NCBI GenBank assembly: GCA_021803245.1
Contig: JAJZLT010000016.1
Coordinates: 1 to 63,098, forward strand
Length of the DNA: 63,098 bases
Source of the DNA: Candidatus Micrarchaeota archaeon
Lineage (GTDB): Archaea > Micrarchaeota > Micrarchaeia > Micrarchaeales > CABMGC01
Reading direction: 5' to 3'
The notes beneath the pieces are model-generated. The model was given only the letters and a program-made list of their open reading frames with translations. It was not told the origin of the DNA and ran no database searches. Below, piece by piece: positions 2,131-19,299 of the stretch; positions within the stretch are counted from its first letter, which is position 1, and each line of letters begins with the position of its first letter. Position numbers and translations under genes: made by a program.

Positions 2131-2261
2131 GAATTAATCCCTTCGATCTTACTATATTAACATTGCTACAGAAATATTGATTTTTCTTTAATATACTTGG
2201 TGTATTTTAAATAGATTGTAAATTTTCCGATGGAGCAGCTTTAAATACGCTTTTAATGTTA

Positions 2262-3239
2262 TCAATAGCCAAAAGTTTCTATGGCTGCATTTATCAATGA
2301 TTCTGCCTTCTGATAGGCTACTGCCGCGGCTGCATGCATTCCGATTTCATTGAGTACCTCGATGAATTCGTTCATCTGTTTAACTGCTTCGTTTCTTGAA
2401 AGGCTTTCTCTCATCATTTTTTCAGGCATCATATTCGTTACCACATATTCTATGGCAGATATGCCGTTTTTATCGGTAGCCAATGGATTAGCACCGGCCT
2501 CTATCAATGCTAATGCAACAGTGGGCATTGATGCGTGCATCAAAGGCGTGAAGTCGCTTGAGAAGCGACGTTGAGTGTAATAGTTTTTATCGGTAAATGA
2601 ACCAATTCCGTACCCGAAATTCACAGGGCCATAATGCCTGTTTACATCGGCTCCTTTTCGAATCATTTCTATAACTCCATTCACCGATCCATTTTCGATG
2701 GCCTTGGTTAATTTTCGGTCTAAGCCACTTTTTTTCATTTCAGAATTATCTGAATCTTCATATTTGTGCCTAAGCAGCCGTCTCTTGACAGGATGATATC
2801 TTCTTCTTAGTGTTTCCTCTGCGCCAATTACGCCTAATGCGGCTATGCCAAGTATAATTTCATCCTGTGCCGTCTTGTTCTTGGCAAGTCCTAGTTTTCG
2901 CATTATTTCTTTTACTGGCTTGTACTTCTCTATGCTGTTCAGGGTTTCTGATGCCCAATTTTCTTTTTCTTTTGCAGCACTATGATCTTCTTTGGCTCCT
3001 GTTTTAGGCCTATTTGTTGTTTCAACTGACTTGACCATTACCGCTGCAGGCTGCTGCCTGTACAATTCACGGAACGAAGGCGCAAAGGACGCTGTGAGTG
3101 AAGCTGCAATCATGGATGATGCAAACGTTTTTGAAATTTTATTCTTAACATGAACAGCGCTGCTTTCTTTTCTCTGCAATGCTGCAGCTAGTTGTGATGC
3201 ATTATTACGTTCATCTGCATGTACACGATTTACTCCCAT
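2262..3239 (-). CDS. Ankyrin-repeat protein, paralogous N-terminal module to 358-2130 (325 aa)
   Basis: ANK motifs VIEMIRKGADVN and TPLMHASMPTVALALIEAGANPLATDKNGISAIEY. Shared module EKYKPVKEIMRKLGLAKNKTAQDEIILG. N-terminal hydrophobic stretch. Confidence 0.7.
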   Translation of the reverse strand: MGVNRVHADERNNASQLAAALQRKESSAVHVKNKISKTFASSMIAASLTASFAPSFRELYRQQPAAVMVKSVETTNRPKTGAKEDHSAAKEKENWASETLNSIEKYKPVKEIMRKLGLAKNKTAQDEIILGIAALGVIGAEETLRRRYHPVKRRLLRHKYEDSDNSEMKKSGLDRKLTKAIENGSVNGVIEMIRKGADVNRHYGPVNFGYGIGSFTDKNYYTQRRFSSDFTPLMHASMPTVALALIEAGANPLATDKNGISAIEYVVTNMMPEKMMRESLSRNEAVKQMNEFIEVLNEIGMHAAAAVAYQKAESLINAAIETFGY

Positions 3240-3271
3240 GATTTAACCCCTCATATTCGCTATGGCGATTT

Positions 3272-4483
3272 CTAGGCCTCTTCTATTTCTTGTTTTATAT
3301 ACTGCGCCAGTGAAGAGGCTTCTGCCTGCCTGCCAATTTTGCCGTCTAACACAGACGCCAGCACGTATGGGATATTATTTACAAGCTGTCCTGTTCCCCT
3401 AAACTGATTTTTTTCATCTGCATTATAATTATTAACTTCATACTTTACTGCATCTCTTGCCAGATTCTGCAGGACTTTTTCTCGAGCTTTGCGCGAAGCT
3501 TCAGCAGTATTATCAGTAGCATATGGCTTTGCAAGAGCATCCATTAGCGTATCTATAAAAGAGCTCAGCTCCTCTTTTGTGGGGAGATATGCTATGGTTG
3601 ATGCCCCCCAGTACCATTTATACTGATCTTTGGAATATGCAGGAGGGCCTGCTTTTAAAGCAGGGCTTGCCAGTTCTATTGCTGTCATCAGCAATGTCTT
3701 GCCATTTTTATCCATTATGTCCGCTTCCGCGCCATGCTCCAGGTAAGCCTTCGCAGTTTCCAGGTGCCCCCACCTTACGCTCTTAAACAAGGAATCGTGG
3801 TCAGTTGCTGTGGCAGCCCTCTTATTCAGTTCTGACTTTACTGCTGCAAGCTCTGCAGACAGGAGCAAAACAGGTATTGCATCGTTGTTCTTCATGTCAA
3901 AGAAATTCATCCTGTCAAAGGCCCGGCGCCCCTCATTGTTAACTGCATTAATATCTGCGCCGCGTGAGATCAAAGAGTATGCTTTGTCCATATCGCTTGC
4001 TATGGCCCCAGGTATAAGCCAGCGGTTATCCCCGAGTTTTTTAATATCATTCACTACTGAAGTTATAGTGCGGAAGAGCTCTGTCTCGCCTCTGCTGTCC
4101 TTTGCATCTATGCCGTGCTCATGATGTATCGTAATTGGCAGAAGTTGCAATGGACCACGCTGTGCAGTTTCAGAAGGCGAATTTAAAATTTTATTGCTCG
4201 GCGTTTCTTCCGCGCCAGGCATGCCTGACATGTATCTCAGGTGGTTTGCAAGCCATGGATTTCTCTCCGACCAATCGCGTTCTTGCTCTTCCGGGCTTTG
4301 GCGGTAATGCGGCTGCGGAAGCACTATGGGCTGCGTTCTCTTGATTCCTTCTTCATTGGAAAGGGCATTGCTCCTGCGCAGCAGCCTCTTTAACCGCGAT
4401 GCTCCGGCACTCCTGGTTTCGCCCATGCCTGAAGCGCCGATTGTTGTATTGGCTCCTGGCTCCTTTTCTTTCCTGCTCCTCAT
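3272..4483 (-). CDS. Soluble ankyrin-repeat protein (403 aa)
   Basis: ANK motifs AYSLISRGADINAVNNEGRRAFD and ETAKAYLEHGAEADIMDKNGKTLLMTAIE. No TM segment seen. Confidence 0.75.
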   Translation of the reverse strand: MRSRKEKEPGANTTIGASGMGETRSAGASRLKRLLRRSNALSNEEGIKRTQPIVLPQPHYRQSPEEQERDWSERNPWLANHLRYMSGMPGAEETPSNKILNSPSETAQRGPLQLLPITIHHEHGIDAKDSRGETELFRTITSVVNDIKKLGDNRWLIPGAIASDMDKAYSLISRGADINAVNNEGRRAFDRMNFFDMKNNDAIPVLLLSAELAAVKSELNKRAATATDHDSLFKSVRWGHLETAKAYLEHGAEADIMDKNGKTLLMTAIELASPALKAGPPAYSKDQYKWYWGASTIAYLPTKEELSSFIDTLMDALAKPYATDNTAEASRKAREKVLQNLARDAVKYEVNNYNADEKNQFRGTGQLVNNIPYVLASVLDGKIGRQAEASSLAQYIKQEIEEA

Positions 4484-4580
4484 CTTACCCTATTGTATGC
4501 ATCTTTCCAGATATATAGCTTTTTGGGAGTTAGAAATTGTCGTCTGAATCATTTACTGATCCTTTTATAAATCAGTATGT

Positions 4581-4590
4581 CTTTTATATC
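4581..4590 (+). promoter_or_regulatory. TATA-like box about 25 nt upstream of the GTG start at 4614 (possible leaderless transcript)
   Basis: CTTTTATATC sits in the 130-bp divergent intergenic region. A second TTTTATAAAT lies at 4563-4572. Confidence 0.3.
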
Positions 4591-4613
4591 ATCTAAGGCA
4601 TAATTGTACTGGT

Positions 4614-6716
4614 GTGCTGGTGTTTTTCGCATTTGCTGTATTGCTCTCTATTGGCGCGATAAATGCGCTGATACCTATAATTATAATACTGATACTTATA
4701 GCTGCTGCGGCTGGCTCTACCAGGGGATACAGCATCTTTGCAATATTGGGCATAGGCACAATTGCAGGAATGGGGCCAAGCGGAAAAGGCAGCATGGCTG
4801 GGAAAGGAAGCTATCCTTTCAGATCCATTCTTGATCCGAATATAAGAGGGCCCAGGAAGTCTCCAGAGGCTAAGAAGAGGAAAGCAGAGAGGAAAGAGAA
4901 GGCAAAAAAGGAAGAAGAAATTCGCAGGAGCAGACCTTTGCCTTTAGGAGCGCCAACGCCTAAAAGATCACTAAAACCATGGCAGAAGAGGACCATTAAG
5001 GTAGCAAGATGGGCAGTTGCACCCGCAATAGTTGGCAGTGGCATTGTAGTTTATCAGAAAGGCTTGGCAGTGGCTAGAAGGATAGCGAGGTCAGCGAATC
5101 CGCAGGACAAGCGGGATGCCAGATCTGCAAGGACAGGAGTAGCAACGGACCGGCTTAGCAGAAGCCTTGACTCACGGAAAGCCCCACAGTATAAACCAAA
5201 TACCACTCCAGGAGCGCCTCCTGGAAGCGGGATGGTTACAAACAGATTGAGCACAGAGAATAGGGAAATTATAAGAAGAATATTAGATGCCAGAAGTAGG
5301 GGAATAGGAGCAGTGCCTACAAGCGCCATTGGGGTTGGGGCAGGGACTGAATTAAGGAGGGCTGCCCTGGCACTTAAAAACCGCCAATTCAAGGTGGCCA
5401 ATACGCACCTAAACAATGTTTCCAAGATAGTGAGCCATAACCTGCAGCAGAGGCAGCTAAATGCAGTTTCCGGAAAGGCTTTGCAGGAAAGGCAAAAACT
5501 CCTGAAGGACATGAATGAAGCAAACGAAATAGGAAAGGGACGCACTGCGACAAGAGGAGGGACTACTTACACAGGAGCAGATGTAGGTGCTGCAAAAACT
5601 ATATGGGGCTCTCTTGCGATGACTGGAATTGCGAAGCTTAGAGGAGACAAATATGGATCTGATTTATATAAGAGAGATGCTCTTGCGCAGCTTAAGGTTA
5701 GGAGCGCAGAGGGTGGCCTTGCACTCTCCGATAGGCTCAGGCATGGAGTAACTGATAAAAAAGGCAGTGTAACCATGGGTCCGCTTCATCAGCAAATAGG
5801 AAGAGCGGCAAGGCAAGAAAAAGCTGGCGAAAACACCAGAGCAAGGGAAAAACACCTGCGTGAGCTTGAAATGTTTCTGTATGGCTCTGTAGGACAGATT
5901 GGAGCTTTCGAAAAGATGTATGGAGTCACTAATCCAGGCAAAGTAGTTAAGTTGAGAGAGAGGGTAAAAGCCGAACAGGCAATTGCAGATTACAAATATA
6001 GTGGAGATCCGGCTGCACTGACAGCGATGAATAGCGCTAAAACGTCAGGAATTATCAGTGATCAGGAATACAATAAAGCCGTTATCGCAGGCCCGTATTC
6101 ATTTACGAGAAAAGAGTATGAATCGCAGACAGAGAAAAACAAAAATGCCATGGAAAACGTTTTGCAGATTGAGATTGGAAGGATAGCATTTGCACAGGAT
6201 AAACTTGCGCACGGCGAAATAACACATGATGTTTATGAAAAAGAGATGGGCAAGATACAGAAGGAGCAGAACCTTCTCAGTAAGCTCGCATATGAGCATT
6301 CACGGCTAACCTCAGGAAACCCTCCTGGAAGGATAGAGGTAGGCTTTAAGCGCAAAATTGGACCGGAAGGAGGGGTAGAGGCGAACGGGCTTCTGCCTAC
6401 CATAAAAATAAACCCGCGCCAGACCGGCACAAGCGGCGTGGCACAGCGGTTGTTTGAGTTTCATAGGAATGTAAATACTATTAACAAGCTAAAAGAAAGG
6501 GGCGACAGAGAATTCTTGCCCCCGACCAACGGCATATTGAATGCTTCTGGAAGATGGCGCAATGAAAACGTTACCAAGTACCACTCCTTTGAAGTTGGCA
6601 GTGCGCCTGCGATGAATAGGAGTGTGTATGAAATAGGGGAAGGAAAACATGTTGAATACCAATTAAGGCGCAGGAGGGTAGTGCCTCTGCCTCACTGGGA
6701 GAGGAAAGAGACATGA
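4614..6716 (+). CDS. Membrane-anchored, extremely basic (K/R-rich), partly coiled-coil protein of unknown function (700 aa)
   Basis: Long ORF with an N-terminal hydrophobic hairpin (LLSIGAINALIPIIIILILIAAAAG ... IFAILGIGTIAGMG), a third hydrophobic segment (WAVAPAIVGSGIVVY), then a K/R/E-rich sequence. First gene of the plus-strand locus. Confidence 0.6.
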   Translation: MLVFFAFAVLLSIGAINALIPIIIILILIAAAAGSTRGYSIFAILGIGTIAGMGPSGKGSMAGKGSYPFRSILDPNIRGPRKSPEAKKRKAERKEKAKKEEEIRRSRPLPLGAPTPKRSLKPWQKRTIKVARWAVAPAIVGSGIVVYQKGLAVARRIARSANPQDKRDARSARTGVATDRLSRSLDSRKAPQYKPNTTPGAPPGSGMVTNRLSTENREIIRRILDARSRGIGAVPTSAIGVGAGTELRRAALALKNRQFKVANTHLNNVSKIVSHNLQQRQLNAVSGKALQERQKLLKDMNEANEIGKGRTATRGGTTYTGADVGAAKTIWGSLAMTGIAKLRGDKYGSDLYKRDALAQLKVRSAEGGLALSDRLRHGVTDKKGSVTMGPLHQQIGRAARQEKAGENTRAREKHLRELEMFLYGSVGQIGAFEKMYGVTNPGKVVKLRERVKAEQAIADYKYSGDPAALTAMNSAKTSGIISDQEYNKAVIAGPYSFTRKEYESQTEKNKNAMENVLQIEIGRIAFAQDKLAHGEITHDVYEKEMGKIQKEQNLLSKLAYEHSRLTSGNPPGRIEVGFKRKIGPEGGVEANGLLPTIKINPRQTGTSGVAQRLFEFHRNVNTINKLKERGDREFLPPTNGILNASGRWRNENVTKYHSFEVGSAPAMNRSVYEIGEGKHVEYQLRRRRVVPLPHWERKET

Positions 6717-6800
6717 GGCTAGCCCATGGAGATCAATTTAGGTGCTTGGACTTTGGCGATAGGCTCTTCCTGAAGCATCTCCACTCTCTTCATAGATATC

Positions 6801-6812
6801 TAATTATATAAT
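6801..6812 (+). promoter_or_regulatory. TATA-like box about 25 nt upstream of ATG 6832
   Basis: TAATTATATAAT is centred about 25 nt before the start codon. There is a 115-nt gap after the preceding gene. Confidence 0.3.
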
Positions 6813-6831
6813 TTGCCATAGATATAGCACT

Positions 6832-8085
6832 ATGCGCCTAGCCAGTAGCATTTCCAGGGTCCTACTTTTCATGCTTTTCTTTCTTGGCATAGCTAACGCG
6901 TGCAGTGCAGCAGCGAACACAGCAGGATTTAATTTATCCTCTATTAACAATGGAAGCGGGCTGGAACTCTCTTTCATCGCACTTCTTATCTCAGTAGACG
7001 TGATAGCGATCGGTTGGATTGCAAACAAGATCCTACCTTCCATAGGCATAGCAGGCTGGCTGCCGAGAGAGTACTGGGAATTTACTAAATCTGCAATTCT
7101 GGTAACTGTGATCTTCTCAGTGATAGCGTTCGTAAGCGGGCTCTCCTTGCTTCTCGGAGGAGTCACTCCGCCCACTGCAGGAGCAGCACAGACATATGCT
7201 GCAAATGCAAATGCACTGGTCTACCAGTCTGAGACTTATCTTTGCACAGTTGACAACTCCCTCCAGGCTTCAATGGCAAACGTAGTCACGCTCTCTTTCG
7301 GATTGGGCGAAGTGAACGGAGCATATGGCGCCGTAGGTTCCTTTGCTGATGGGCAGGGCGGAAATCCCGGCTCGTATGCGGGCCTTGCGCTCTTCTATCA
7401 GGGCATACCGATCCCGCCTGTTCCACTGCCAGGATTTTTCGGGCTACTTCCGGAATTCAGGTCAGGCATAAACTTTGTCATACTCAGCAACTTCATGCTC
7501 GGCTCGAACTTCGTCTTCCACAGCCAGTTTGTCTCATTCATAAACGATGCGCTTGTCTTCCTGGCCTTCCCGATGGCCCTCTTCTTTATCTCTGAAGAGA
7601 AGCTGCTCCCCCTGCTTGTGCTTATAGGGCTCAACGTGCTCATACCAATCGGCCTTGTCTTCCGCTCTTTCCCGTTCCTGCGGAACATAGGGGGAACTCT
7701 GGTGGCGCTCGGCATAGGCGTTTCGCTCATCTGGCCATCGCTGCTGCTGCTGATCAATGTGCCGCTTACTGGTTACTTCAAGCCATTGCTCTATGACACC
7801 ACCTCATCAAGCACAGCGTTCTCAAACAGCTGCCCCGGCTTCTTCGCCATTATATGCAACGGAGTAAACACGCTCTTCACCGGAACATTCTACGGTTTTG
7901 ACAGCATAGACAATATTTATCCGGATATCAACTTCCTTATGAAAAATGAGCTCTTTATAATATTCCAGCAGTATGTGCTCTTCATGATAGACCTGGTAAT
8001 CTTCTTCCCGCTCACCGATGCAATAGCGAGAACACTCGGAGGCACAATCAGGCTTCAGCTCGGAAAGAGGTTTAAGCTGGTGTAG
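6832..8085 (+). CDS. Polytopic membrane protein, paralog 1 of 6 (signal-peptide-like N-terminus)
   Basis: Motif VFRSFPFLRNIGGTLVALGIGVSLIWP. N-terminus MRLASSISRVLLFMLFFLGIANAC. Many hydrophobic segments. Confidence 0.8.
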   Translation: MRLASSISRVLLFMLFFLGIANACSAAANTAGFNLSSINNGSGLELSFIALLISVDVIAIGWIANKILPSIGIAGWLPREYWEFTKSAILVTVIFSVIAFVSGLSLLLGGVTPPTAGAAQTYAANANALVYQSETYLCTVDNSLQASMANVVTLSFGLGEVNGAYGAVGSFADGQGGNPGSYAGLALFYQGIPIPPVPLPGFFGLLPEFRSGINFVILSNFMLGSNFVFHSQFVSFINDALVFLAFPMALFFISEEKLLPLLVLIGLNVLIPIGLVFRSFPFLRNIGGTLVALGIGVSLIWPSLLLLINVPLTGYFKPLLYDTTSSSTAFSNSCPGFFAIICNGVNTLFTGTFYGFDSIDNIYPDINFLMKNELFIIFQQYVLFMIDLVIFFPLTDAIARTLGGTIRLQLGKRFKLV

Positions 8086-8087
8086 AT

Positions 8088-9260
8088 ATGATAGGCCTAT
8101 TCTCGTTTGCAAACTTCATGCTCGCTGCCACGACTACTTACCAGGCTACCTGCTCCTATGCATATCTGAACCAGGCCGGCTGGATAAACATAAACATGCT
8201 TGTTGTACTGGCATTCATGCTTATTGCATCGCTGATATATGCGATAAGCTCGCTGCTTCCTGCTTCGAAGAGCGAGAGGGCCAAGGGCCTTGTGAAATTT
8301 GAATTGGTGCAGGGCGTAATAAGCGTTCTGCTCATAGTGGCCATACTTTCCTTCGCAGATGTTACGTGCAATGCAGGCGCAGCGCTTATGGGTCCGTACA
8401 GCGGATATCAGGATCCATTCCAGTACTCGCATTTCTATCTAGGAACCCTTGTCTTTACCACAGGCGTCTCGCTTATTTCGAGCTTGTGGTCGCAGGGAAT
8501 AATACTGCTGGTGGACGGAAACCTGGTAGGCGACTTCCTAAGCAGCATTCCGCTGGGCCATCTTAGTCTAGGCCCATTCAGCGGTGAATTTGGCATAGGT
8601 GAAGAAGCCACATATGTCTTTTTCGAATACAACGGAATACTCACGCAGGTCTTCTCGGTCATCGTAGTGCTTACTTCCGGAATACTGGTCATCGTATTCC
8701 TTATCCTGCCTGCGGTAGAGCAGCTCGCCCTTGGTGTTGTGCTGCCCGTGGCTATCATAATGAGATCGCTTTCATTTACCGGGCCCAGGCTGCGTGAGGC
8801 TGCCAATTCATTCATCGCTCTTGCTCTTGCCTTCTATTTCGTCTTCCCCATGACAATAGTTATGGACAGTTATATTGTAGGATGGCTCTACTGCACCAAC
8901 GGAACGACATGCAATCCTTATTCAGGCTATCTTGGTTCATATCCGCTGAGCAATCTGCCGGTAAGCCCGCTCTTCAAGCAGACAAGCGAGACAACATTAG
9001 GCCTTGGCGCGCCGCTGAGTATTTACAGCGCAGAGGTAAGCGGAAATGGAGGCATAGGAAGCATGCTGACGCAACTGCTTGAGGGCCTGGTAAGGCTGCC
9101 TGCGCTTGTGCAGAATTTTATACCTTCTGTGGCAGAGTACGTCTTCCAGGGCGTTATGCTTTTAGGGCTTGACCTTGCAATAACAGTCGGATTTGCAATA
9201 GGTCTTACAAAGAGCTTTGCTGCAGCTTCAAGTTTTATGCATATTGGCCCGGTGCTTTGA
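8088..9260 (+). CDS. Polytopic membrane protein, paralog 2 of 6 (most divergent)
   Basis: Starts 2 nt after the previous stop, with GGTG upstream. Degenerate motif IMRSLSFTGPRLREAANSFIALALAFYFVFP. Same TM layout as the other paralogs. Confidence 0.75.
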   Translation: MIGLFSFANFMLAATTTYQATCSYAYLNQAGWININMLVVLAFMLIASLIYAISSLLPASKSERAKGLVKFELVQGVISVLLIVAILSFADVTCNAGAALMGPYSGYQDPFQYSHFYLGTLVFTTGVSLISSLWSQGIILLVDGNLVGDFLSSIPLGHLSLGPFSGEFGIGEEATYVFFEYNGILTQVFSVIVVLTSGILVIVFLILPAVEQLALGVVLPVAIIMRSLSFTGPRLREAANSFIALALAFYFVFPMTIVMDSYIVGWLYCTNGTTCNPYSGYLGSYPLSNLPVSPLFKQTSETTLGLGAPLSIYSAEVSGNGGIGSMLTQLLEGLVRLPALVQNFIPSVAEYVFQGVMLLGLDLAITVGFAIGLTKSFAAASSFMHIGPVL

Positions 9261-9311
9261 AATGGATGATACTGCAAGATTTAACGGGGCATGCAAATTG
9301 GTGGGGCTACG

Positions 9312-10766
9312 ATGAGGTCATCTGTACTGCTTATACTGTTATGCGCTCTGCTCCTGCCTTTCCTTATCACATCCACAGCGGCTGCCGCGCCCCAGACCAA
9401 AACCACCATAACAAATGCAAATGTGCTAAACCAGTGGCTAAGTGTTATAATGATAGCGGTGCTGGCCAGCGTGCTGCTGCTTATCTTTTACTATGTTGCA
9501 GGATACCTTCTCAATAATGCGCAGATAAAGACAACTGCAATCAACGAGATCCAGCAGGCTTTCGGCACAGCAGTGGCAGTCTTTATAATAATAGCTGCAC
9601 TTGATTTTGTAGGGAATGCGGTTTTCTCTAGTACAAATCTCGTGCCTCCTTCGACCATAAGCAACATCTGCACTACCTTGACTGGCGCTAATCTGGATTT
9701 TGTGAAAAATGCTGCACCTAATGGATATTACACGCCTACAAACACTCTCTGCAATGGCATTATAAGCAAGGCCAAAAGCGGCACTCTCAGCGTCTCAAAT
9801 TCCATCGACTATGGCTTAGGGGCCTCTTACATAATAATAGCCAACATAACCAACCAGAGCCTCACTAATCTGAATGCGGTCTACATTTTCGAGAGCTATA
9901 CCGGATTCTTGACCGCACTGAACCCCACGGCAAGCGTTTGCATACCTAATGATATCTGCCTGACTGAAGGTGTGCCGGCCTTCTACGCTTCTATCAGCTA
10001 TGCACCTTTTGCCGCTTATGGAACTCTTAGGGGAGTTGTCTTTCCTGTAGCCTCGCAATCAGAGATGATTTTTTACATGAGTCTGCTGGAGGAGATGGCG
10101 ATACTGCTTATGCTTTACGCATGGCCATATATACTCGCTGCGGGCATAATACTGCGCGCGTTTACTTTTACCCGGCGGGCAGGCGGGCTTATCATTGCCT
10201 TGGTGCTCTCTGCCCTGATTATCTTCCCGCTGATAATGCTTTTTGAGTACTCCTCTCTTACTAATCCGCATATAGTGCCGGTAGGTGCGAATGAGATAAC
10301 CGTAAATGCGATAAGCAATAGCATTGCGCTTAAAGGATTACCCGTTGGAAAAACCAACACCCCTGCAAACGTAATAGATTACAGCTCCGGCACCATAAAC
10401 TTCTTCTCCTTCCCGCGCGCAGACTACGTGCTTAATTACGAAGGCTGCTGGCCCGGCACGTCAATGCTTACCAGGGAAGCGGAGATAGTAGGAGGTTATG
10501 CCATACCGGGTTACGGGGAATTTCTCACCCTCTCAACTGTGCTCGGATCGTTCACTGGATCGGTGCCTGCTGTGCCCTTCACAAATTGCAACTGGCCCAA
10601 TGTAATACACTCGCTCTTTGCGCTTGAAAACCTCTATGGAATACTCTCAGTGATAGGAATAATAGTGCCAATACTCAATCTCCTGCTTGTGCTTGGCAGC
10701 GCCAGAAGCCTATCATTCCTGCTTGGCGGAGACATGAATATCTTTGGGCTTGGGCGCTTGTTGTAG
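9312..10766 (+). CDS. Polytopic membrane protein, paralog 3 of 6
   Basis: Motif ILRAFTFTRRAGGLIIALVLSALIIFP. I prefer the ATG at 9312 (MRSSVLLILL..., GGTGGGG upstream) over the track start at 9291. Confidence 0.8.
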   Translation: MRSSVLLILLCALLLPFLITSTAAAAPQTKTTITNANVLNQWLSVIMIAVLASVLLLIFYYVAGYLLNNAQIKTTAINEIQQAFGTAVAVFIIIAALDFVGNAVFSSTNLVPPSTISNICTTLTGANLDFVKNAAPNGYYTPTNTLCNGIISKAKSGTLSVSNSIDYGLGASYIIIANITNQSLTNLNAVYIFESYTGFLTALNPTASVCIPNDICLTEGVPAFYASISYAPFAAYGTLRGVVFPVASQSEMIFYMSLLEEMAILLMLYAWPYILAAGIILRAFTFTRRAGGLIIALVLSALIIFPLIMLFEYSSLTNPHIVPVGANEITVNAISNSIALKGLPVGKTNTPANVIDYSSGTINFFSFPRADYVLNYEGCWPGTSMLTREAEIVGGYAIPGYGEFLTLSTVLGSFTGSVPAVPFTNCNWPNVIHSLFALENLYGILSVIGIIVPILNLLLVLGSARSLSFLLGGDMNIFGLGRLL

Positions 10767-10774
10767 GTTTGACC

Positions 10775-11989
10775 ATGAAAAAATACGCGCTCGCACTGCT
10801 CTTTGCCTTTTTCGTATTAGCTTCGCCTTCACTCGACATGGCGTCACCTCCCGCTACAATAGGTAGCACATACTGCACGCCCATCTTTACGCCTAGCAAA
10901 GCAGTAGTCTCTACTTCATTCGTGCTAAGCCCCGGCTCTGTGCCAATACACGGTACTTTTGGCGGGGTGATAAGCATAGCCCTCCTCATAGTGCTGATGG
11001 TGTTTACTGTAATAGCACTCGTATATGGGGTAGGAGTAGCTTTCAGAATAGACAAGCTTATTAGATTCGGTCGCGCCGAGCTTCTTGAATCGTTTGCGAA
11101 CGTAGTGATAATAGTAGTAATAGCGTTTGGGGTAGGAACCATACTAGGCGCAGCGTCTTTCCTTGCCAACCTGGGCTCGCTTAATGTGGTTGCTCCTTCA
11201 TCCGGTTTTTCCACAGGCGTGCAGGGTTTCTATACCAACACATGCATAAACATCTTCAACAACGTCATAATAACCAGCTTATTTGACATGGTAGGAGGCC
11301 TTGCTAACGCTGTCGTCTACGAGATACTTGACGACTTCCAGCTAACTTTCGTGCCAGGGGGCTACATTTCCTATGTTGTACCTGGTTTTGAGGTCCAGCC
11401 ATTTCAGGGAATAGGCCCAATAGTCTCGCTGACCTTCGTTGAGACCTCCACATTTACAGCATTCATTATGACAGGATTGGGCATAATCTTCATGCTTTTT
11501 GTCATTTATTACCTTTTCCCTGTCTTCCTTTATTTGGGGATAGTGCTCAGGTCATTCCCATGGACGAGACCGGCAGGAGGTGCGCTTATAGCGATATTCG
11601 TCTCGTTTTACATCTTCTTCCCCGCCCTACTCTATCCTTTCACTACCTTCGGCAGTAGCGTCAGTAACATATACTGCAATGGCTCTTCATCGCACGGAGG
11701 AACCACTTCAACCACCGGGAGTCCAGTTCCGGATATCTGCAGCTCAAATAATATTACGCATTACATCGCTACTGGGGGCATAGATGCCTTGCTGGCCCTT
11801 TTGGGCAACATTAACGCCGCATTCAACAGTAATGTAGAGATATATGCGAGCATGGTAGCCGCATTCGCGATTGAGTTTATAGGATTTGCCATAGCATTTC
11901 TTATATCCTACGACCTGCTGGAGGTTTTTGGAGACCTGTTCGGCTCGCCTTCGCTGCAGGCGAATAGAATACTGAGTAGATTGATATGA
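10775..11989 (+). CDS. Polytopic membrane protein, paralog 4 of 6
   Basis: Motif VLRSFPWTRPAGGALIAIFVSFYIFFP. ATG at 10775 (MKKYALALLFAFF) is preferred over the TTG at 10769. Confidence 0.8.
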   Translation: MKKYALALLFAFFVLASPSLDMASPPATIGSTYCTPIFTPSKAVVSTSFVLSPGSVPIHGTFGGVISIALLIVLMVFTVIALVYGVGVAFRIDKLIRFGRAELLESFANVVIIVVIAFGVGTILGAASFLANLGSLNVVAPSSGFSTGVQGFYTNTCINIFNNVIITSLFDMVGGLANAVVYEILDDFQLTFVPGGYISYVVPGFEVQPFQGIGPIVSLTFVETSTFTAFIMTGLGIIFMLFVIYYLFPVFLYLGIVLRSFPWTRPAGGALIAIFVSFYIFFPALLYPFTTFGSSVSNIYCNGSSSHGGTTSTTGSPVPDICSSNNITHYIATGGIDALLALLGNINAAFNSNVEIYASMVAAFAIEFIGFAIAFLISYDLLEVFGDLFGSPSLQANRILSRLI

Positions 11990-13185
11990 TGCTTTTGCCT
12001 TTTCTCTTGCCTGGGGGATATGCGCTTGCTGCCAACGGATGCTCAGCCACAGGCGGTGCGGCAAGCCTGGCCAACTATATTACCGCACCATGCGGGGCAT
12101 GGTTCCCTATTGCATTGATAGCCGTACTGATGGTGATAGGGCTTATGGCCATAATATATGGCCTGAGTGAATTCATAGGAAGGAATGATATAAAGACGTG
12201 GGTCAGGGTAAAGATTTATGACGCGCTGCTTTCTATAGTCTTTATACTCATCTTTGCTGCATTCGGCACGCTCTTATTTACGATACCTGTAGCATCAACC
12301 CTGCAGAGCGTGAAGCTCTTCCCTGGAAGCGGGGGAAGCACGCCTTCTGAATGCGCAGCCCAATCGCCTACGAAAGTAAACAACCTTTATTCGGTAGCGT
12401 CGTGCGACATGTTCCTCTTCAACTTTTACGAAGCGAACCTAAACTTATATATATTCTATAGCTTTCTTCTTACTTCTGCAGTATCCCCATCGATAGGATT
12501 CGCGCTCAGTTTTGGGCCAGGCTCGCTAAGCAGCGGAGGCAGCACAGGCAGCCTTGCAGGCAGCGTAGGAATCGGTGCTTCAGGCATTGAGATCTTCCCG
12601 CAATACGCGTCTTATAAATTCCTTGGGCCGGTGCTCGACCTTTTCTATGGCCTGATACTGCTGAATCAGGTTCAGCTTATACTTATCGCAGCTTCCGGGT
12701 TAATCTTCTCCATCTTTATGGCACTTGGACTGATTGCAAGGGCTTTTGTGATAACGCGCACGTTCGGTGGCGCGATGATAGCATTTGCAATAGGAATAGG
12801 ATTTATCTACCCTCTTCTTGTTTCGATAAACTATGGCTTTCTTGTATATGCGCTCTCTACAAACACGCTGAGTTCTCTTGTAAATTTCTCAAGCGGAACC
12901 TTTGCGTTTTTTGGCGTGCCTCTGATGTTTATTAATCTGATAGCAAGCCTGACAACAGGCCTCGTTGGTTCTGCCCTCTCATTCTTTTCTGTTGGCAGTT
13001 CGGCATATACTCAAGTGGTAAGCGTATTTCCTGCCGCCCTCTTTGAGTACTTCGGCCTTGTGATTTCAGGGCTTATGTTCATACCTGTGCTTGAGCTTGT
13101 GCTTGTCGACGTCTTCATCATAGACTTCTCGCAGGCGATAGGGGAACGCATGGACCTCCTCTCGCTATTTACGAGGCTGCTGTGA
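11986..13185 (+). CDS. Polytopic membrane protein, paralog 5 of 6
   Basis: ATGA start/stop overlap with the previous gene. Motif IARAFVITRTFGGAMIAFAIGIGFIYP. Confidence 0.8.
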   Translation: MMLLPFLLPGGYALAANGCSATGGAASLANYITAPCGAWFPIALIAVLMVIGLMAIIYGLSEFIGRNDIKTWVRVKIYDALLSIVFILIFAAFGTLLFTIPVASTLQSVKLFPGSGGSTPSECAAQSPTKVNNLYSVASCDMFLFNFYEANLNLYIFYSFLLTSAVSPSIGFALSFGPGSLSSGGSTGSLAGSVGIGASGIEIFPQYASYKFLGPVLDLFYGLILLNQVQLILIAASGLIFSIFMALGLIARAFVITRTFGGAMIAFAIGIGFIYPLLVSINYGFLVYALSTNTLSSLVNFSSGTFAFFGVPLMFINLIASLTTGLVGSALSFFSVGSSAYTQVVSVFPAALFEYFGLVISGLMFIPVLELVLVDVFIIDFSQAIGERMDLLSLFTRLL

Positions 13186-13195
13186 GCTGATTTGC

Positions 13196-14275
13196 ATGAG
13201 GAGAATACTTGTTTATCTCATCCCGCTTTCGCTTCTTCTAATCAGCATAGCCCACTCCTCTTACTTCTCCACTTACTGCGCACCAGTAAGCACTGCTGCT
13301 ACAGGCTTTAATGTCAACGCGCTCGCGCCTTGGTACTGCAGCCAGATAAACCAGACTCTCGCCAGCGACTGGAGCTACTGGGAGCCAATTGCGTTTGCCG
13401 CAATCATGTTCTCGCTTGCAGTAGGAATAATAATATGGACCTTCGGAGGGCTCCTGCGAAACGAGCGGTTGAGGACGTTTGGCCTTGGCGAGCTTTATGA
13501 GGCGTTCGCAACCGCCGTAATAGTAGTGCTGTTTCTCTTCATCTCTGCAGTTATGCTCGGCCTGCTTCCCAGCGTCGTGGTAGGCAACATTAACCCGTAC
13601 AGCACATCGCTTAACTACATAGCAGGCACAATAAATTCTGTGCAGCAGGAGGTTTACAGCGCCTTTTATATAGAGGTTCTTGACCGATATTATTCCAGCA
13701 TAAGACTTCAGGTATGCATACTTGCTGTTTGCAAGGGCATACCGGAAACTTTCACATATATAATAAACTATCTTTACTATATCCCGGCTTTCACCATAAT
13801 AGACCTGCTGCTTGACGGGATCATGCTGCTGTACGGCGAATTCTACCTGATACAGATCTTCCTTTACATGGCCATACCGGTCTTCCTCATTCCAGGCATA
13901 ATACTTCGCGCGATAATGCCTACGAGGGGCATAGGCGGCATGATGATAGCTATTGCAATAGGCTTTTACGTTATAATGCCTATCCTCTTTGCAACTGCGT
14001 ACGCCTTCAGCGCAAAGCAGCTGATAAACCAGTTTGATGCGAATACGGCACAGTTCCAGCAGTATGGGCAGGGTACAGGTGCACAGATAAACGCCCTTAC
14101 CCCGTCTTCGCCGCTGATAGAGACGCTGACAAACATACAGAGCCAGATGGGAAGCTTCTGGCTTGCAGTTGTTTTCTGGCCTTCGCTCATAATAGGCATA
14201 TGCTACGAGATTATAATTCAGATAGCAGAATTCATAGGAGGCATGGCGCAGGGCTCAGGAAGGATGAGGATATAG
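13196..14275 (+). CDS. Polytopic membrane protein, paralog 6 of 6
   Basis: Motif ILRAIMPTRGIGGMMIAIAIGFYVIMP. N-terminal signal-like MRRILVYLIPLSLLLISIAHS. Confidence 0.8.
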   Translation: MRRILVYLIPLSLLLISIAHSSYFSTYCAPVSTAATGFNVNALAPWYCSQINQTLASDWSYWEPIAFAAIMFSLAVGIIIWTFGGLLRNERLRTFGLGELYEAFATAVIVVLFLFISAVMLGLLPSVVVGNINPYSTSLNYIAGTINSVQQEVYSAFYIEVLDRYYSSIRLQVCILAVCKGIPETFTYIINYLYYIPAFTIIDLLLDGIMLLYGEFYLIQIFLYMAIPVFLIPGIILRAIMPTRGIGGMMIAIAIGFYVIMPILFATAYAFSAKQLINQFDANTAQFQQYGQGTGAQINALTPSSPLIETLTNIQSQMGSFWLAVVFWPSLIIGICYEIIIQIAEFIGGMAQGSGRMRI

Positions 14276-14336: not shown

Positions 14337-15176
14337 GTGTTCGTGTTGGCACTTAACCTGCAGCTCCTGCTCTTTGTGATACTCGTAGGAGCAGGAATAG
14401 TTGTTGCTGTCTTCATCTACGCTGTTCCGTCCCCTGTGCTTTCGCCGATTCTGGCAGTAATAACACTCGTAATTGCTGTCTTCGCTTTCGCCACTAAATA
14501 CTATACGTACCTGATGGTGCCTGCACTGAAGATGAAAGGCAGAACCATAGTGCTCAGCGCAGACGAACCGTTTATCATAGCGCCCAATAACGCCGCAATA
14601 TTGATGCATGAGGGACAGGAGGTTTACGCGAGCGCGTTCGTAAAAATTCCGCTTTACAGGTCTGCCACCGAGATGAGCAATGATGAGAAGCTCGATTTTG
14701 CGCGCCTCTTCTCGAGGATGACTACGCTCAGCAAGACACCTGTCAAGATCTCTTCGCAGATGCACGTGATAAACAAGGATGAATATATTACAAGCATAAG
14801 GAACAAGCTTAACGAGGCCCAGGAGCGATACGCCACGCTTGGGGCGAAGCCCGGGGGCAGCAAGGCAAGCAATGACAGAATAAAAGGCGAAGTCACCATG
14901 TGGAAGAACCTCATGGACAATGTCAGCGCCTCGCAGGCACATGCACTCACTATATATGCAATGGTCAGCGCTATGGGCGGCAATGAGGAGGAAGCATTGA
15001 CTATTGTCAATCAGCAGGCAGAGGATTTTGCTGCAGGAGTTAGCGCCATATTCGGAGTAAGTGCATATGTAGTGAAAGGCATCGAGCTTCTTACATTCAT
15101 AGAGCCGGACCACATGATACCGGTAGAGACGGTGACTGAAAGGCTTAAGGAGAAGGCTACAGAAGAGGCGCTATAG
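14337..15176 (+). CDS. 2-TM protein with soluble domain, paralog A (VirB3/VirB4-N-terminal-domain-like architecture, inferred)
   Basis: N-terminal hydrophobic hairpin followed by a roughly 200-aa soluble domain. Aligns by eye with the next gene. Confidence 0.65.
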   Translation: MFVLALNLQLLLFVILVGAGIVVAVFIYAVPSPVLSPILAVITLVIAVFAFATKYYTYLMVPALKMKGRTIVLSADEPFIIAPNNAAILMHEGQEVYASAFVKIPLYRSATEMSNDEKLDFARLFSRMTTLSKTPVKISSQMHVINKDEYITSIRNKLNEAQERYATLGAKPGGSKASNDRIKGEVTMWKNLMDNVSASQAHALTIYAMVSAMGGNEEEALTIVNQQAEDFAAGVSAIFGVSAYVVKGIELLTFIEPDHMIPVETVTERLKEKATEEAL

Positions 15177-16001
15177 ATGGACGAGTATACCATAATGTAC
15201 TTATCGATTTCAGGCATACTCATATTCATCGTTATTGCAGGCTATGGCGCATACGGCTCATTTGCACCGTTCGTGATCGTCTTGGCCATACTTGCCATGC
15301 TACTTATACTCTTGCTTAATTATGCCGACTTCGTGATCTTCCCGGTTATAACGCAGGTGCTTGGAATAAAGGTGCTCCTCTGGAAGGATTACATGGTGCC
15401 CAAGACAGAGAACTGCGTGATAAAATACACTAAAGGGCTGTACTACGCGCAGGGCTATCTCTCGGCAAACATTTATAACTACATCTTCGCTGCGGAAAAC
15501 ATAAACCAGGAAGAAGATGCAGGCATAATCAGCGGTGCAGATAAATGGGAGAGGATAGTTATGAGCATAGACTTTCCGTTCAAGTTTAATGTAGTTTCAC
15601 TCGCAGAAGAATTGCAGAAGCACAGGGAAGAGCTTGAAGGCAGGCGCGGTTTCCTGCAGTTTCAGATGTCGCGGGAAATGAGCAGCGGCAATCCAAACAC
15701 TCTGACAATACAGGAGATGCAGAAGAAGATAAATATAATACAGGCAAGGATAGACAGGATCTCGGCAGGAGAAAGGCCGGTGAAGACGATAATGTACATA
15801 GAAACAGTTGCAGTCGGAGTCAGCGAGAAAGAGGCCACAGATAACCTTACCAATCAGCTAAACAAGCTGATTACAGTGTTCAATTCATTCGACCTGAGCA
15901 TAATGCGCGTAACGGGAAGGGAGATGCATATACTCAACAAACTTAACTATAGGATTATGGACTTTGACCTGCTTAACAGACAGTTCCAGCTGCAAAAATA
16001 A
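15177..16001 (+). CDS. 2-TM protein with soluble domain, paralog B
   Basis: ATG lies immediately after the previous stop. Same layout as paralog A. KTIMYIETVAVGVSEKEATDNLTNQLNKLITVFNSF aligns with ALTIYAMVSAMGGNEEEALTIVNQQAEDFAAGVSAIF in A. Confidence 0.65.
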   Translation: MDEYTIMYLSISGILIFIVIAGYGAYGSFAPFVIVLAILAMLLILLLNYADFVIFPVITQVLGIKVLLWKDYMVPKTENCVIKYTKGLYYAQGYLSANIYNYIFAAENINQEEDAGIISGADKWERIVMSIDFPFKFNVVSLAEELQKHREELEGRRGFLQFQMSREMSSGNPNTLTIQEMQKKINIIQARIDRISAGERPVKTIMYIETVAVGVSEKEATDNLTNQLNKLITVFNSFDLSIMRVTGREMHILNKLNYRIMDFDLLNRQFQLQK

Positions 16002-16040
16002 ATGAAATATATTTAAGCTTTGAAAGCCAAGTGCATTTGT

Positions 16041-17555
16041 ATGTCGATTGTGCGTATCCAGAACGTAATGAGCAATGAGCTCTCGAAGAGAATCTTCGTC
16101 ACCAGACCTCCGGAGCCGCCTTACGAGTTTCTGCTCAATGACCCTACAGATTCGATCTTTATAGGTATAACCAAGCTCTTTGGAGTGCCATTTACGTGGA
16201 ATTTTGCGAATCTTGCGAACCCGCACATATCCGTAGTAGGAATTACCGGATCTGGAAAGAGCTTTTTTGTGAAGACCTTCCTGACCAGAGCCAGCTTCGT
16301 CTGGAATACAAATGCAATAATAGTCGACTGGGCAGGCGAATACATAGCTTGGGTAAGGAATAGCGGTGGCGTGGTAGTCTCGCTTGCTAAAGGGGACTAC
16401 ATGAACCTGATGGACCTCTCTGGCACAAAGCCCCTCGACCGAGTAAAGCAGATTATGAATGCCTTTGACATACTTACAGACATCTCTGATTTCCCTGAGC
16501 AGCGGAGGCTTACCGCAGAAGCGATGGAGCAGGCTTATCTGAATGCAGGATTCGGGCTTGCAACACTTCCGGATCCGAGGAGGGAGGTGCCAACGCTCAA
16601 GGATGTTACAAAGCTGCTTGAAGAGAAACTGCAGGAAGGCACATACCAGTATCCTGCAGAGCTGGAAAATACAATTTATAGGTTAAGGCAGTTCTCCAGG
16701 GAAGGGGAGGACTATTTCGCCAAGAAGAGCACAATAGACCTCGGCAAACTTGCCACCTCCGGTCTGGTAGACATAGACCTTTCCGGACTCCCTGATGAGA
16801 AGTTCAGGGCCATGGCTGCTCTCTTCATTCTTCAGACGCTAGAAGTGATAATGCGCGCTGAAGGATGGAGCTCAAACAAGGGATTAAAGGCGCTGGTGGT
16901 CCTTGACGAGGCCTGGAAGATAGCCAACGACGAGAGGAGTGACGCCATAACGATAATAAGAGAGGGCAGGAAGTATCAGTTCGGGCTCATAGTAGCATCT
17001 CAAAATCCAACAGATATAAATGAGGCCATCTTCTCTAACGTAGGCACTACAATAATGCTCAAGATAAAGTTTGAGAAATTCTTGGACTACCTGCAGGGTT
17101 CGCTCAACTTCTCTGCTTACATAAGGAAAGAAATAGGCAATTTCGGGGTTGGGCAGGCTGCCGTTGACATGTCCTTTAACACGTCTGTCCAATTTCCCAA
17201 TGTCTTCGTAATCGAGAGGATAGTAGGGGAAGTGCCGCTTGATACCTACACCATAACCATAGGAGACATACTCACGCCATCTGAGCAGGAACAGAAAACT
17301 ATACCTAAGGATTATTCCTTTGAGAGGATAGACATGAGCTCAAAATTCGTAGATGCGGGCTTCAGCGCAGAGGCAATACAGAAGATATTCAAAGGCATGG
17401 ATAGCAGGGGGAGGATAATTGACATAAGGGCTATGATGCAGATACTCTCTGCCGAGAATATTGACAAGAATGTCATGGTTTCATTCTTAAGAGGCATAGG
17501 CCTCTCTGACACGCTGATAACACGGGTCTTCGGATACCTGGCAGCGCAGATGTGA
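16041..17555 (+). CDS. P-loop ATPase of the FtsK/HerA/VirB4 superfamily (DUF87/AAA_10-like)
   Basis: Walker A VVGITGSGKSFF, Walker B LVVLDEAWKI, and REGRKYQFGLIVASQNPTD. ATG at 16041 is preferred over the TTG at 16020. Confidence 0.85.
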   Translation: MSIVRIQNVMSNELSKRIFVTRPPEPPYEFLLNDPTDSIFIGITKLFGVPFTWNFANLANPHISVVGITGSGKSFFVKTFLTRASFVWNTNAIIVDWAGEYIAWVRNSGGVVVSLAKGDYMNLMDLSGTKPLDRVKQIMNAFDILTDISDFPEQRRLTAEAMEQAYLNAGFGLATLPDPRREVPTLKDVTKLLEEKLQEGTYQYPAELENTIYRLRQFSREGEDYFAKKSTIDLGKLATSGLVDIDLSGLPDEKFRAMAALFILQTLEVIMRAEGWSSNKGLKALVVLDEAWKIANDERSDAITIIREGRKYQFGLIVASQNPTDINEAIFSNVGTTIMLKIKFEKFLDYLQGSLNFSAYIRKEIGNFGVGQAAVDMSFNTSVQFPNVFVIERIVGEVPLDTYTITIGDILTPSEQEQKTIPKDYSFERIDMSSKFVDAGFSAEAIQKIFKGMDSRGRIIDIRAMMQILSAENIDKNVMVSFLRGIGLSDTLITRVFGYLAAQM

Positions 17556-17556
17556 T

Positions 17557-17856
17557 TTGACGACTGGAACATTTATAATAAGCAGGATAGAGCTTGAACG
17601 GGTGCTTACCGGGCTAGGAGTCAGTACGCAAAAGATCGAAGGCCTCGTTTCTGCGCTCAACAAGATGCACAGGCATTCGAATGCGGTGGCGTTCGTAGGC
17701 ATGCTCCAGAAGACCGGGCTAAGACAGCCTGAGATAGCGAATATATTAAGGAGGATAGGGATAGACGATGTTACTGTTACAAATATCTTTAACTCTCTTG
17801 ACGAGGAGAGGATAAAGAGCGCATTTGGCAGGATTGTGGAACTGAAGGTGGAATGA
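17557..17856 (+). CDS. Small helical-repeat protein related to the C-terminal tail of the ATPase
   Basis: Three copies of a G-[ILV]-x-x3-[IV]-x3-[ILF] module (GLGVSTQKIEGLV, KTGLRQPEIANIL, RIGIDDVTVTNIF). These resemble DAGFSAEAIQKIF and GIGLSDTLITRVF in the ATPase tail. TTG start. Confidence 0.5.
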   Translation: MTTGTFIISRIELERVLTGLGVSTQKIEGLVSALNKMHRHSNAVAFVGMLQKTGLRQPEIANILRRIGIDDVTVTNIFNSLDEERIKSAFGRIVELKVE

Positions 17857-18257
17857 TGCAGGCCAAGAAGCAGCACACATACTGCATGGTATGCGGAAAG
17901 GAGAAAACAGGCATCTCTGTCAAGGAGGATTATGTTATAGACATTATAAGGTGGTTCAAGAAGACAGTGCTCAGGTCCGAAAGCCACAACCTGCTTGTAG
18001 TATGCAAAGAGGATTACCCAGTATATAAGAAATACAGGAAGAGGTTCGTATCAAGGCAGCGGATCTATATAGTGCTTGGCGTTCTTTTCGTAATCTTTGG
18101 CATGATTATCTCGCCGTTTATAACCACGCTGCTTTATATGCTTGCGCTTCTTCTTTTCCTGTACCTCCTCTCCCTGATAAATTATGTGCCTGCACTGGAT
18201 CTGATGAAATATAAGGAAGGCAAGAAAACCGTAGGCAAGAAGAAGGATGCACTGTGA
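17853..18257 (+). CDS. Zn-ribbon-like N-terminus plus two C-terminal TM segments (134 aa)
   Basis: ATGA overlap with the previous gene. CMVCGKEK ... VVCKEDY, then hydrophobic IYIVLGVLFVIFGMIISPFITTLLYMLALLLFLYLLSLI. Confidence 0.55.
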   Translation: MMQAKKQHTYCMVCGKEKTGISVKEDYVIDIIRWFKKTVLRSESHNLLVVCKEDYPVYKKYRKRFVSRQRIYIVLGVLFVIFGMIISPFITTLLYMLALLLFLYLLSLINYVPALDLMKYKEGKKTVGKKKDAL

Positions 18258-19282: not shown

Positions 19283-19299
19283 CATTCACACTGGTCTTT

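Follow-up and report, generated by a model that had tools for sequence, protein, structure and literature searches.

What does a micrarchaeal cell build from six adjacent, diverged copies of one membrane protein gene? The question is posed by a 63,098-nucleotide contig of a Candidatus Micrarchaeota archaeon (JAJZLT010000016.1, assembly GCA_021803245.1; hereafter the window), on whose plus strand six genes, here called paralogs A to F, follow one another between positions 6832 and 14275. The original prediction, made by a model from the letters alone, had described them as a tandem family of polytopic membrane proteins with a shared motif, had proposed a hetero-oligomeric assembly and had set the family apart from VirB6/TrbL and common transporters. 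The present analysis leads to a model in which A to F are, on balance, probably VirB6/CedA-class subunits of a chromosomal, lineage-wide machine resembling the archaeal Ced and Ted derivatives of type IV secretion systems (T4SS), and in which they probably form a hetero-oligomer.

Six paralogs of fixed number and order

The open reading frames (ORFs) of the window and their translations, from which the array coordinates and quoted strings are taken (Table 1), place the six tandem plus-strand genes where the original prediction had put them. All six motif strings that it quoted are present in the translations, as are the N-terminal Cys contexts (ANAC-S, ANGC-S, STYC-T/A-P, and ATC-S), the segments leading into the second transmembrane (TM) helix (ELLESFANVV, ELYEAFATAV, and IYDALLSIVF) and the basic tails (GRLL, SRLI, TRLL, and RMRI); its lengths for C and D are those counted from the second ATG and from the ATG start, respectively. 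The genes overlap or lie at most 30 bases apart, and with their neighbors form a putative operon of about 11 genes and about 13 kb.

Direct comparison of the copies by BLASTP and phmmer gives weak scores, yet the alignments always fall in register at the motif R-x-F-x3-R-x2-G-G...P, which is common to all six and takes a variant form in B. One profile per copy, built from 35-43 orthologs from related genomes, was therefore compared with every other by hhalign, and all 15 pairs reached probabilities of 95.5-99.6% (E 1e-8 to 1e-24) over alignments that begin at the first TM helix and end beyond the motif or at the C-terminus, whereas the same profiles scored below 1.5% against the neighboring membrane-anchored proteins G and H, used as controls. 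The claim of six paralogous genes with one architecture is thus upheld, and the similarity is not compositional: as judged from these profiles, A to F are anciently diverged true paralogs of a single family. Among 64 family members, two Arg and one Pro of the motif region are invariant (R278, R284, and P302 in the numbering of A; R238, R244, and P262 in that of F). Near-invariance extends to the N-terminal Cys, to a pair of Glu where TM2 begins, to the GG that follows the second Arg and to a C-terminal GG. Each copy also has its own conserved signature. The motif of B, which had been called degenerate, proved to be a variant conserved in 39 species (mRs..F.GP.LRe.sN.flAlAiafYfifP) rather than a product of decay. 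Ortholog identity lies between 32 and 43% across the six copies, with a mean of 33% over 43 orthologs of A and of 43% for F, whose 122 ortholog clusters are all hypothetical and without Pfam domains.

The topology of the family was predicted from hydropathy and charge analysis of all six proteins together with an AlphaFold2 model of A, which is all-helical (predicted local distance difference test, pLDDT, 62). A signal-like N-terminus (none in B and E), usually followed by the conserved Cys, precedes a hairpin in which a short basic loop joins TM1 to TM2, the latter with acidic residues at its head; a first large, charge-poor and Cys-bearing loop of 60-143 residues leads to a core in which TM3, the R-x-F-x3-R-x2-G-G turn and TM4 ending at the invariant Pro follow one another, and a second Cys-bearing loop of 44-116 residues leads to TM5 and a short basic tail. 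By the positive-inside rule, the N-terminus and both large loops would be extracellular, the motif turn and tail cytoplasmic, such that the proteins share the predicted traits of the VirB6 class: a polytopic build (five or more hydrophobic helices), an N-out/C-in orientation and a large loop on the extracytoplasmic side. The extracellular loops differ strongly from copy to copy. Some metagenomic family members (P0159, P0169, and P0213) have their membrane core preceded by domains of the PKD, Ig or TIG type; as these are fused to the N-terminus, they also place it outside the cell, and their presence suggests surface exposure and possibly adhesion for the members that bear them.

A scan that took one genome per GTDB species yielded 44 loci, each from a distinct species and nearly all labeled Micrarchaeota, Micrarchaeia or Micrarchaeaceae. 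The A homologue of the closest locus is 93% identical to that of the window, and one locus sits on a chromosome of 853 kb, another on a contig of 1.05 Mb. A set of exactly six copies, arranged A-B-C-D-E-F, is found in 37 distinct loci, the window included, the remainder being cut by a contig end (seven) or fragmented (one); copy number and order are thus conserved in related genomes. The ORFs score 84-380 bits against the window paralog at their own position and 20-45 bits against those at other positions, and by this measure each copy is orthologous by position. It follows from this and from the order fixed in 37 loci that the six-fold duplication predates the radiation of these organisms, and to judge from the same loci no copy has been lost or gained since. 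In line with the original prediction, a set so fixed argues against simple redundancy, and it accords with an assembly of several subunits. Each locus holds the operon once, and its flanks contain housekeeping genes that differ from locus to locus, which argues that it belongs to the core chromosome and not to a mobile element. A few operon contigs (L006, DATJMH010000008.1; L041, JAMCZM010000016.1; and P0003) are labeled “Candidatus Saccharimonadales bacterium” or “Candidatus Marsarchaeota archaeon,” probably through mis-binning or mislabeling of Micrarchaeota DNA. In wider searches, a profile run against 5.8 billion proteins matched solely unnamed or “hypothetical” proteins without Pfam domains, and HMMER against 1.84 billion representatives (50% clustering) returned 2989 members at E ≤ 1e-3, inspected short of the tail of the list, and the family may extend beyond Micrarchaeota.

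Neighboring genes and the comparison with type IV secretion

In most of the 44 loci the array adjoins the genes G, H, and I, the last a VirB4-type ATPase lying three genes downstream of F, a neighborhood typical of VirB6-class genes. The motor I matches DUF87, AAA_10 and the TraG P-loop domain in Pfam; its best NCBIfam matches, all far below cut-off, are CedD, the CD1110 VirB4-like family, CedB, and TraC, and its matches among PDB sequences are HerA and the VirB4 C-terminal domain 4ag5. Both nucleotide-binding motifs are present (Walker A, GITGSGKS; Walker B, VVLDEAWK). Profiles of VirB2, B3, B4, B5, B6, B8, and B10 were built from nine plasmid loci and, together with single proteins of R388, compared with the proteins of the locus by hhalign; solely the match of I to the VirB4 C-terminal domain was significant, residues 55-360 aligning to TrwK 422-725 (96.8%, E 3e-10), and VirB8 and VirB10 had no match among the operon proteins. 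As similarity begins only at residue 55 of I, equivalent to TrwK 422, the polypeptide lacks the whole VirB4 N-terminal domain (about 420 residues), and on this alignment I corresponds to the C-terminal (RecA-like) domain only. Unlike VirB4, it has an additional C-terminal helical domain (17190-17555), of which J is a free-standing copy covering the last 75 residues or so. J follows I in 17 loci. A helix-hairpin-helix-like domain, an impression gained from reading J and the I C-terminus, was dropped, as Pfam returned no consistent family for either at E up to 1. K, which has no Pfam match, follows J in five other loci and is tentatively counted as part of the system.

G and H are paralogous to one another (hhalign 96.5%, E 9e-10), each with a soluble domain of about 200 residues, and neither has a match in Pfam, NCBIfam, PADLOC, PHROG, or among PDB sequences. 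The synteny of G is kept in 27 loci, and H is represented by 332 ortholog clusters, 119 of the 120 listed being 266-278 residues long, mostly 274 or 275, so that its length is conserved with unusual tightness. In a Foldseek search with the AlphaFold2 model of H (pLDDT 79.4), the top five matches were all TrwK/VirB4 chains of the R388 T4SS (prob 0.95-0.99, E 6e-3 to 2e-2), and the sixth fell to prob 0.33. Because VirB4 structures consisting of the C-terminal domain only, and those of HerA, are missing among the 50 matches shown, the resemblance of the H model would be to the VirB4 N-terminal domain; among the neighbors such a fold is seen in the matches of the H model only, for which the matched region is unreported and sequence profiles are negative. 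G may be read as the fusion of a VirB3-like anchor with a VirB4-N-terminal-domain-like module, and the locus then resembles a VirB4 divided into a motor and two anchored proteins akin to its N-terminal domain.

Upstream of A, about 25 of the 44 loci hold one or two genes (S), sometimes tandem duplicates and 1-4 kb away, whose products of 111-190 residues combine a signal peptide and a Cys with a pair of hydrophobic helices linked through a short basic loop and with a further Cys at the C-terminus, the build of VirB2/TrbC/T4SS_pilin proteins (PF04956, PF18895). Eight of ten tested are near-threshold matches to T4SS_pilin or TrbC/VirB2, all below gathering scores, the best reaching E 1.4e-5 for T4SS_pilin (25.5 bits against a cut-off of 26.6) and E 2e-4 for TrbC/VirB2; against the small VirB2 profile, the S profile gives 55%. 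The TM1-loop-TM2 module of the paralogs resembles S as well, with hhalign probabilities of 92.9% for B (E 4e-7; range 83-93%, E 9e-6 to 4e-7), 70.7% for D, 38% for A and 70.6% for the pooled family, as compared with at most 0.5% for four other membrane proteins taken as controls. The signal is weak for the N-termini of C, E, and F, and the VirB2 profile of the MPF_T mating-pair formation class gives 50% against the N-terminus of C (E 1.6e-4). A pilin-homologous N-terminal hairpin, a further trait of the VirB6 class, is thus found in the modules of B, D, and A. Between the pilin gene and A lie two further conserved polytopic membrane proteins, f2 (about 625 residues, 21 loci) and f0 (about 243 residues, 32 loci), without Pfam matches.

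In the window, and in the fetched parts of the loci of its clade, a hypervariable basic protein, U, takes the place of S, f0, and f2. U has a single hydrophobic stretch, at its N-terminus, and 120 Lys or Arg as compared with 64 Asp or Glu, the 120 basic residues falling within the 658 residues of the tail; among the 20 loci compared only the first 100 residues or so are conserved, and the length varies from 345 to 703 residues between species. It has no Pfam, NCBIfam, PADLOC, or PHROG match, and its N-terminus shows no relation to the S pilin, VirB2, B3, B8, or B10 profiles. In four other loci a U-like gene is located downstream of F, on the plus strand between F and G in L024 and L031 and on the minus strand in L018 and L019. 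U is tentatively included in the system.

The paralogs themselves match no known family. A to F have no Pfam or NCBIfam match at E up to 1, VirB6/TrbL and transporter families included, and none in PADLOC or PHROG; profiles of A, G, and H found nothing among PDB sequences by hmmsearch, and the model of A drew no Foldseek match with E below 1.8, a result that, at pLDDT 62, is too uncertain to serve as a true negative. The claim that the family lies outside VirB6/TrbL and common transporters is therefore sustained insofar as no mapping by sequence or fold was obtained (Pfam, NCBIfam, hhalign, PDB, and Foldseek). To say that it is not VirB6-like is right for recognizable sequence similarity, but as a statement on function this is too strong, given the T4SS/Ced-like context provided by the ATPase I, the H model, the S pilins and the N-terminal hairpin.

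A proposed machine and its alternatives

Taken together, position, topology, pilin-like N-terminus and neighbors would place A to F in the slot held elsewhere by VirB6, CedA or TedA. The model proposes that the six paralogs together form a membrane platform or channel of a T4SS-derived machine present across Micrarchaeota, beneath which G and H, as VirB3-like anchors fused to VirB4-N-terminal-domain-like modules, would tether a hexamer of I. The cytoplasmic R-x-F-x3-R-x2-G-G turns and the basic tails may contact G, H, or I, and ATP hydrolysis by I would then drive a macromolecule across the membrane; I may also drive the assembly of VirB2-like pilins. DNA is the leading candidate for the substrate, a best guess that draws on the analogy with conjugation, on the import of DNA by Ced and Ted, and on the lack of a relaxase or coupling protein. 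The paralogy, the fixed gene order, the split VirB4-like ATPase context and the pilin genes of related loci are observed; the hetero-oligomer, its contacts with G, H, and I, the VirB6-class role and the substrate are inferred. Possibly one copy of each paralog sits beneath the hexameric motor, in contrast to the VirB6 of R388, which is a homo-pentamer (PMC9259494). A stronger form of the model, in which A to F, one copy each, make a pseudo-sixfold hetero-hexameric ring matching the hexameric VirB4-like motor, serve as the symbiont-side conduit for the uptake of DNA or host macromolecules, possibly the barrel seen in cryo-tomograms of ARM-1, and are essential for episymbiosis, is unlikely.

The machine so drawn has several known counterparts, none of which it copies. 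VirB6/TrbL proteins (PF04610; TrwI of R388, structures 8rt9 and 7o3j) are likewise polytopic and all-helical, TrwI having seven long helices of which five are hydrophobic (PMC9259494), and the model of A has a similar count of long helices; their gene adjoins a VirB4-type ATPase, they oligomerize at the base of the apparatus, and their N-terminal hairpin is reported to be related to VirB2 (PMC9905601), as that of B and D is to S here. In contrast to the six fixed paralogs, VirB6 is a single gene whose product forms a homo-pentamer, and no sequence, profile or fold similarity to A to F was detected. We know of no VirB6 in which the R-x-F-x3-R-x2-G-G...P motif occurs. CedA and CedE of the Ced system of Sulfolobales and TedA of the Ted system of Thermoproteales belong to archaeal, chromosomal, domesticated T4SS derivatives that, as here, lack a relaxase and a coupling protein; the likeness is drawn from gene content and published descriptions. 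The N-terminus of CedA is reported to be related to the CedA1 pilin, as that of VirB6 is to VirB2 (Beltran et al., PMC9905601); in CedA and TedA alike it is homologous to the cognate pilin, comparable to the hairpin and S here. Ced also has a channel paralog, CedE, related to CedA, and divides the VirB4 N-terminal domain between CedB and CedD, which together make one (PMC9905601; PMC11868833). It differs in having two channel paralogs instead of six and in that CedB and CedD both include an ATPase domain, whereas the modules of G and H are separate from the ATPase; the present lineage (DPANN) and its obligately episymbiotic lifestyle also differ from those of Ced and Ted. The nearest functional analogue is the chromosomal T4SS of Patescibacteria (the Candidate Phyla Radiation), in which a minimal set of VirB4, VirB3/PrgI, VirB6, and a VirB2-like protein is kept across an episymbiotic lineage with reduced genomes and is reported to be essential for epibiotic growth (PMC12102498). 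That system is bacterial and of the monoderm MPF_FATA type, its components are recognized by standard hidden Markov models, it has a single VirB6, and no VirB3-VirB4 fusions were found there.

A number of observations weigh against this model. Aligned to a VirB6 profile of nine MPF_T sequences, which is shallow and covers Proteobacteria only, A to F reach at most 1.7% in hhalign, and the family profile against TrwI gives 0.06%; Foldseek with the model of A, of pLDDT only 62, places TrwI/VirB6 (8rt9_F) at rank 26 with E 8.1. The match of H to VirB4 is borderline (E about 6e-3, TM-score 0.31) and finds no support in hhalign comparison with R388 proteins or the nine-locus profiles, nor was anything gained by pooling G and H or by greedy or global alignment to the VirB4 N-terminal domain. 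I scores about equally against HerA and VirB4 models. Neither Pfam nor NCBIfam recognizes a coupling protein (VirD4), relaxase, VirB8, or VirB1 in the operon proteins or in flanking ORFs of 150 residues or more (358-34251), an absence that Ced and Ted share. S, f0, and f2 are found neither in the window nor in the fetched parts of its clade's loci, and in L014, L035, and L045 F is followed not by G-H-I but by an Exo5-like PD-(D/E)XK nuclease and an alanyl-tRNA synthetase. In the genome of L045, the contig that bears the array also has an H ortholog, some ten genes farther on. The negative comparisons with VirB6 leave room for remote homology, since the link of Ced and Ted to VirB6 is likewise detectable only by HHpred and other sensitive profile methods (PMC9905601).

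Other explanations come into consideration. It is conceivable, if somewhat unlikely, that the machine is unrelated to T4SS and Ced and shares with them only a motor of the HerA/FtsK superfamily, being instead an ATPase-energized envelope structure specific to Micrarchaeota, such as a pore spanning the S-layer or a docking platform for host nanotubes. The lack of detectable VirB6 similarity in A to F, the match of I to HerA as strong as that to VirB4 models, the want of known relatives for U, f0, f2, J, and K, and the 21-nm barrel of unidentified nature at sites of host-tube docking (PMC11329633) all agree with such a structure. Yet VirB2-type pilin genes occur in most related loci, the paralogs carry a pilin-like N-terminal hairpin, and the H model matches VirB4 specifically; chance would hardly account for the meeting of three T4SS-type signals, each independent of the others, at a single locus. 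Should A to F be interchangeable channel or adhesin subunits, each forming a homo-oligomer for a given host, substrate or condition, the great differences between their extracellular loops, the Ig, PKD or TIG domains of some members, typical of surface recognition, and the homo-pentameric VirB6 of R388 (PMC9259494) would be readily understood. Such host-range cassettes would normally vary, however, whereas 37 loci agree without exception in copy number and order, none showing gain, loss or reshuffling; the genes are packed as in one operon, with overlaps or gaps of 0-30 bases, and 32-43% ortholog identity is kept in each copy. We consider this quite improbable.

That A to F represent an ordinary solute transporter family, whether as subunits or as isoforms, set beside ATPase genes by chance is very unlikely. 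Polytopic helical proteins with a conserved charged motif in the membrane or a loop would suit a transporter, as would the three related loci in which the A-F block is not followed by G-H-I, but no transporter family in Pfam, NCBIfam, or the PDB is matched, G-H-I adjoins the array in most loci, and large Cys-bearing extracellular loops, Ig-type fusions and a pilin-like N-terminal module speak for something else. That the cluster is an integrated conjugative element or provirus rather than part of the cellular core genome is barely credible: ATPases of the VirB4/HerA type and pilins are typical of mobile elements and I has weak PHROG matches, but the operon stands once per locus in 44 species among differing housekeeping flanks, the region is uniform in base composition, neither PHROG nor PADLOC matches the membrane proteins, and Pfam finds no integrase, relaxase or replication protein in ORFs of at least 150 residues between 358 and 34251, ORFs beyond 34251 being unscanned. 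A defense-island reading was rejected on context, as only I matches generic HerA models, and none of the partners of HerA anti-phage systems (Sir2, DUF4297 and others) was found by PADLOC, which matched no neighboring protein. The Ced/Ted-like machine with six VirB6/CedA-class subunits thus remains the preferred explanation.

Surroundings of the operon and meaning for Micrarchaeota

The operon is embedded in ordinary chromosomal genes. TopoVI-B, a KH protein, a DHH phosphoesterase, eIF2-gamma, and CDC48 are among the housekeeping genes of the window, and a DUF981 protein (24217-24867, minus strand) and a DUF2666 protein (32685-33608, plus strand) lie among them. Immediately upstream of the operon, three consecutive genes on the minus strand (358-4483) encode ankyrin-repeat proteins of 590, 325, and 403 residues, preceded by a tRNA-His (211-283). 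On the other side, a coiled-coil protein of 241 residues with a C-terminal winged-helix region (18406-19131), whose counterpart in L003 has a weak CdvB_HTH match, is followed by a protein of 804 residues (19279-21693) without a Pfam match.

Table 1. Genes of the putative operon and upstream genes of related loci; positions refer to the window unless a related locus (L) is named.
Feature	Position	Strand	Length (residues)	Description
Paralog A	6832-8085	+	417	Signal-like N-terminus, five predicted TM helices, motif RSFPFLRNIGG...P, tail LGGTIRLQLGKRFKLV
Paralog B	8088-9260	+	390	Variant motif RSLSFTGPRLRE with 4-residue insertion and without GG; most pilin-like N-terminal hairpin of the six
Paralog C	9291-10766	+	491 (first ATG) or 484 (second ATG)	Largest extracellular loops; motif RAFTFTRRAGG...P
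Paralog D	10769-11989	+	406 (TTG start) or 404 (ATG)	Motif RSFPWTRPAGG...P
Paralog E	11986-13185	+	399	Motif RAFVITRTFGG...P
Paralog F	13196-14275	+	359	Motif RAIMPTRGIGG...P; shortest and most conserved copy
G	14337-15176	+	279	N-terminal TM helices (TM region 1-57) and soluble alpha/beta domain
H	15177-16001	+	274	Three N-terminal helices and alpha/beta domain
I	16020-17555	+	511	P-loop ATPase of the HerA/VirB4 superfamily
J	17557-17856	+	99	Soluble helical protein
K	17853-18257	+	134	Basic Cys-bearing N-terminus and two TM helices; 4-base overlap with J
U	4614-6716	+	700	Conserved N-terminal membrane anchor (about 100 residues) and hypervariable, very basic tail; directly upstream of A
S (L003)	4424-4798			VirB2/T4SS-pilin-like
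S (L022)	6153-6572			VirB2/T4SS-pilin-like
S (L022)	6632-7048			VirB2/T4SS-pilin-like
S (L038)	6800-7201			VirB2/T4SS-pilin-like
f2 (L003)	4828-6648			Conserved upstream membrane protein
f0 (L003)	6708-7439			Conserved upstream membrane protein

No description of the operon or of its family was found in about 8 million full texts searched for Micrarchaeota or DPANN together with VirB4, VirB6, T4SS, or Ced. The model would thus describe a system akin to Ced, Ted and T4SS in which the channel subunit has expanded six-fold and VirB4 is split three ways, in a lineage without such a system in the papers searched. Micrarchaeota, like other DPANN archaea, have tiny genomes and depend on physical contact with a host, and we know of no molecular apparatus described for this contact. 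As gene order in the operon is maintained throughout the lineage and the membrane components are unannotated, the operon is a prime candidate for such an apparatus. Cryo-electron tomography of a cultivated Micrarchaeon has revealed an unidentified barrel-like envelope structure, 21 nm in size, where host nanotubes dock (PMC11329633); a link between this barrel and the operon is a matter of speculation. If the machine is Ced/Ted-like and T4SS-derived, it would extend domesticated conjugation machinery to DPANN and run parallel to the chromosomal T4SS on which the epibiotic growth of Patescibacteria depends. It would further provide a natural case in which a VirB6-class subunit has become six specialized proteins and VirB4 has been divided among three genes, with a bearing on the evolution of symmetry mismatch and channel architecture, and the genes defined here offer targets for cryo-electron tomography and proteomics on cultivated Micrarchaeota.

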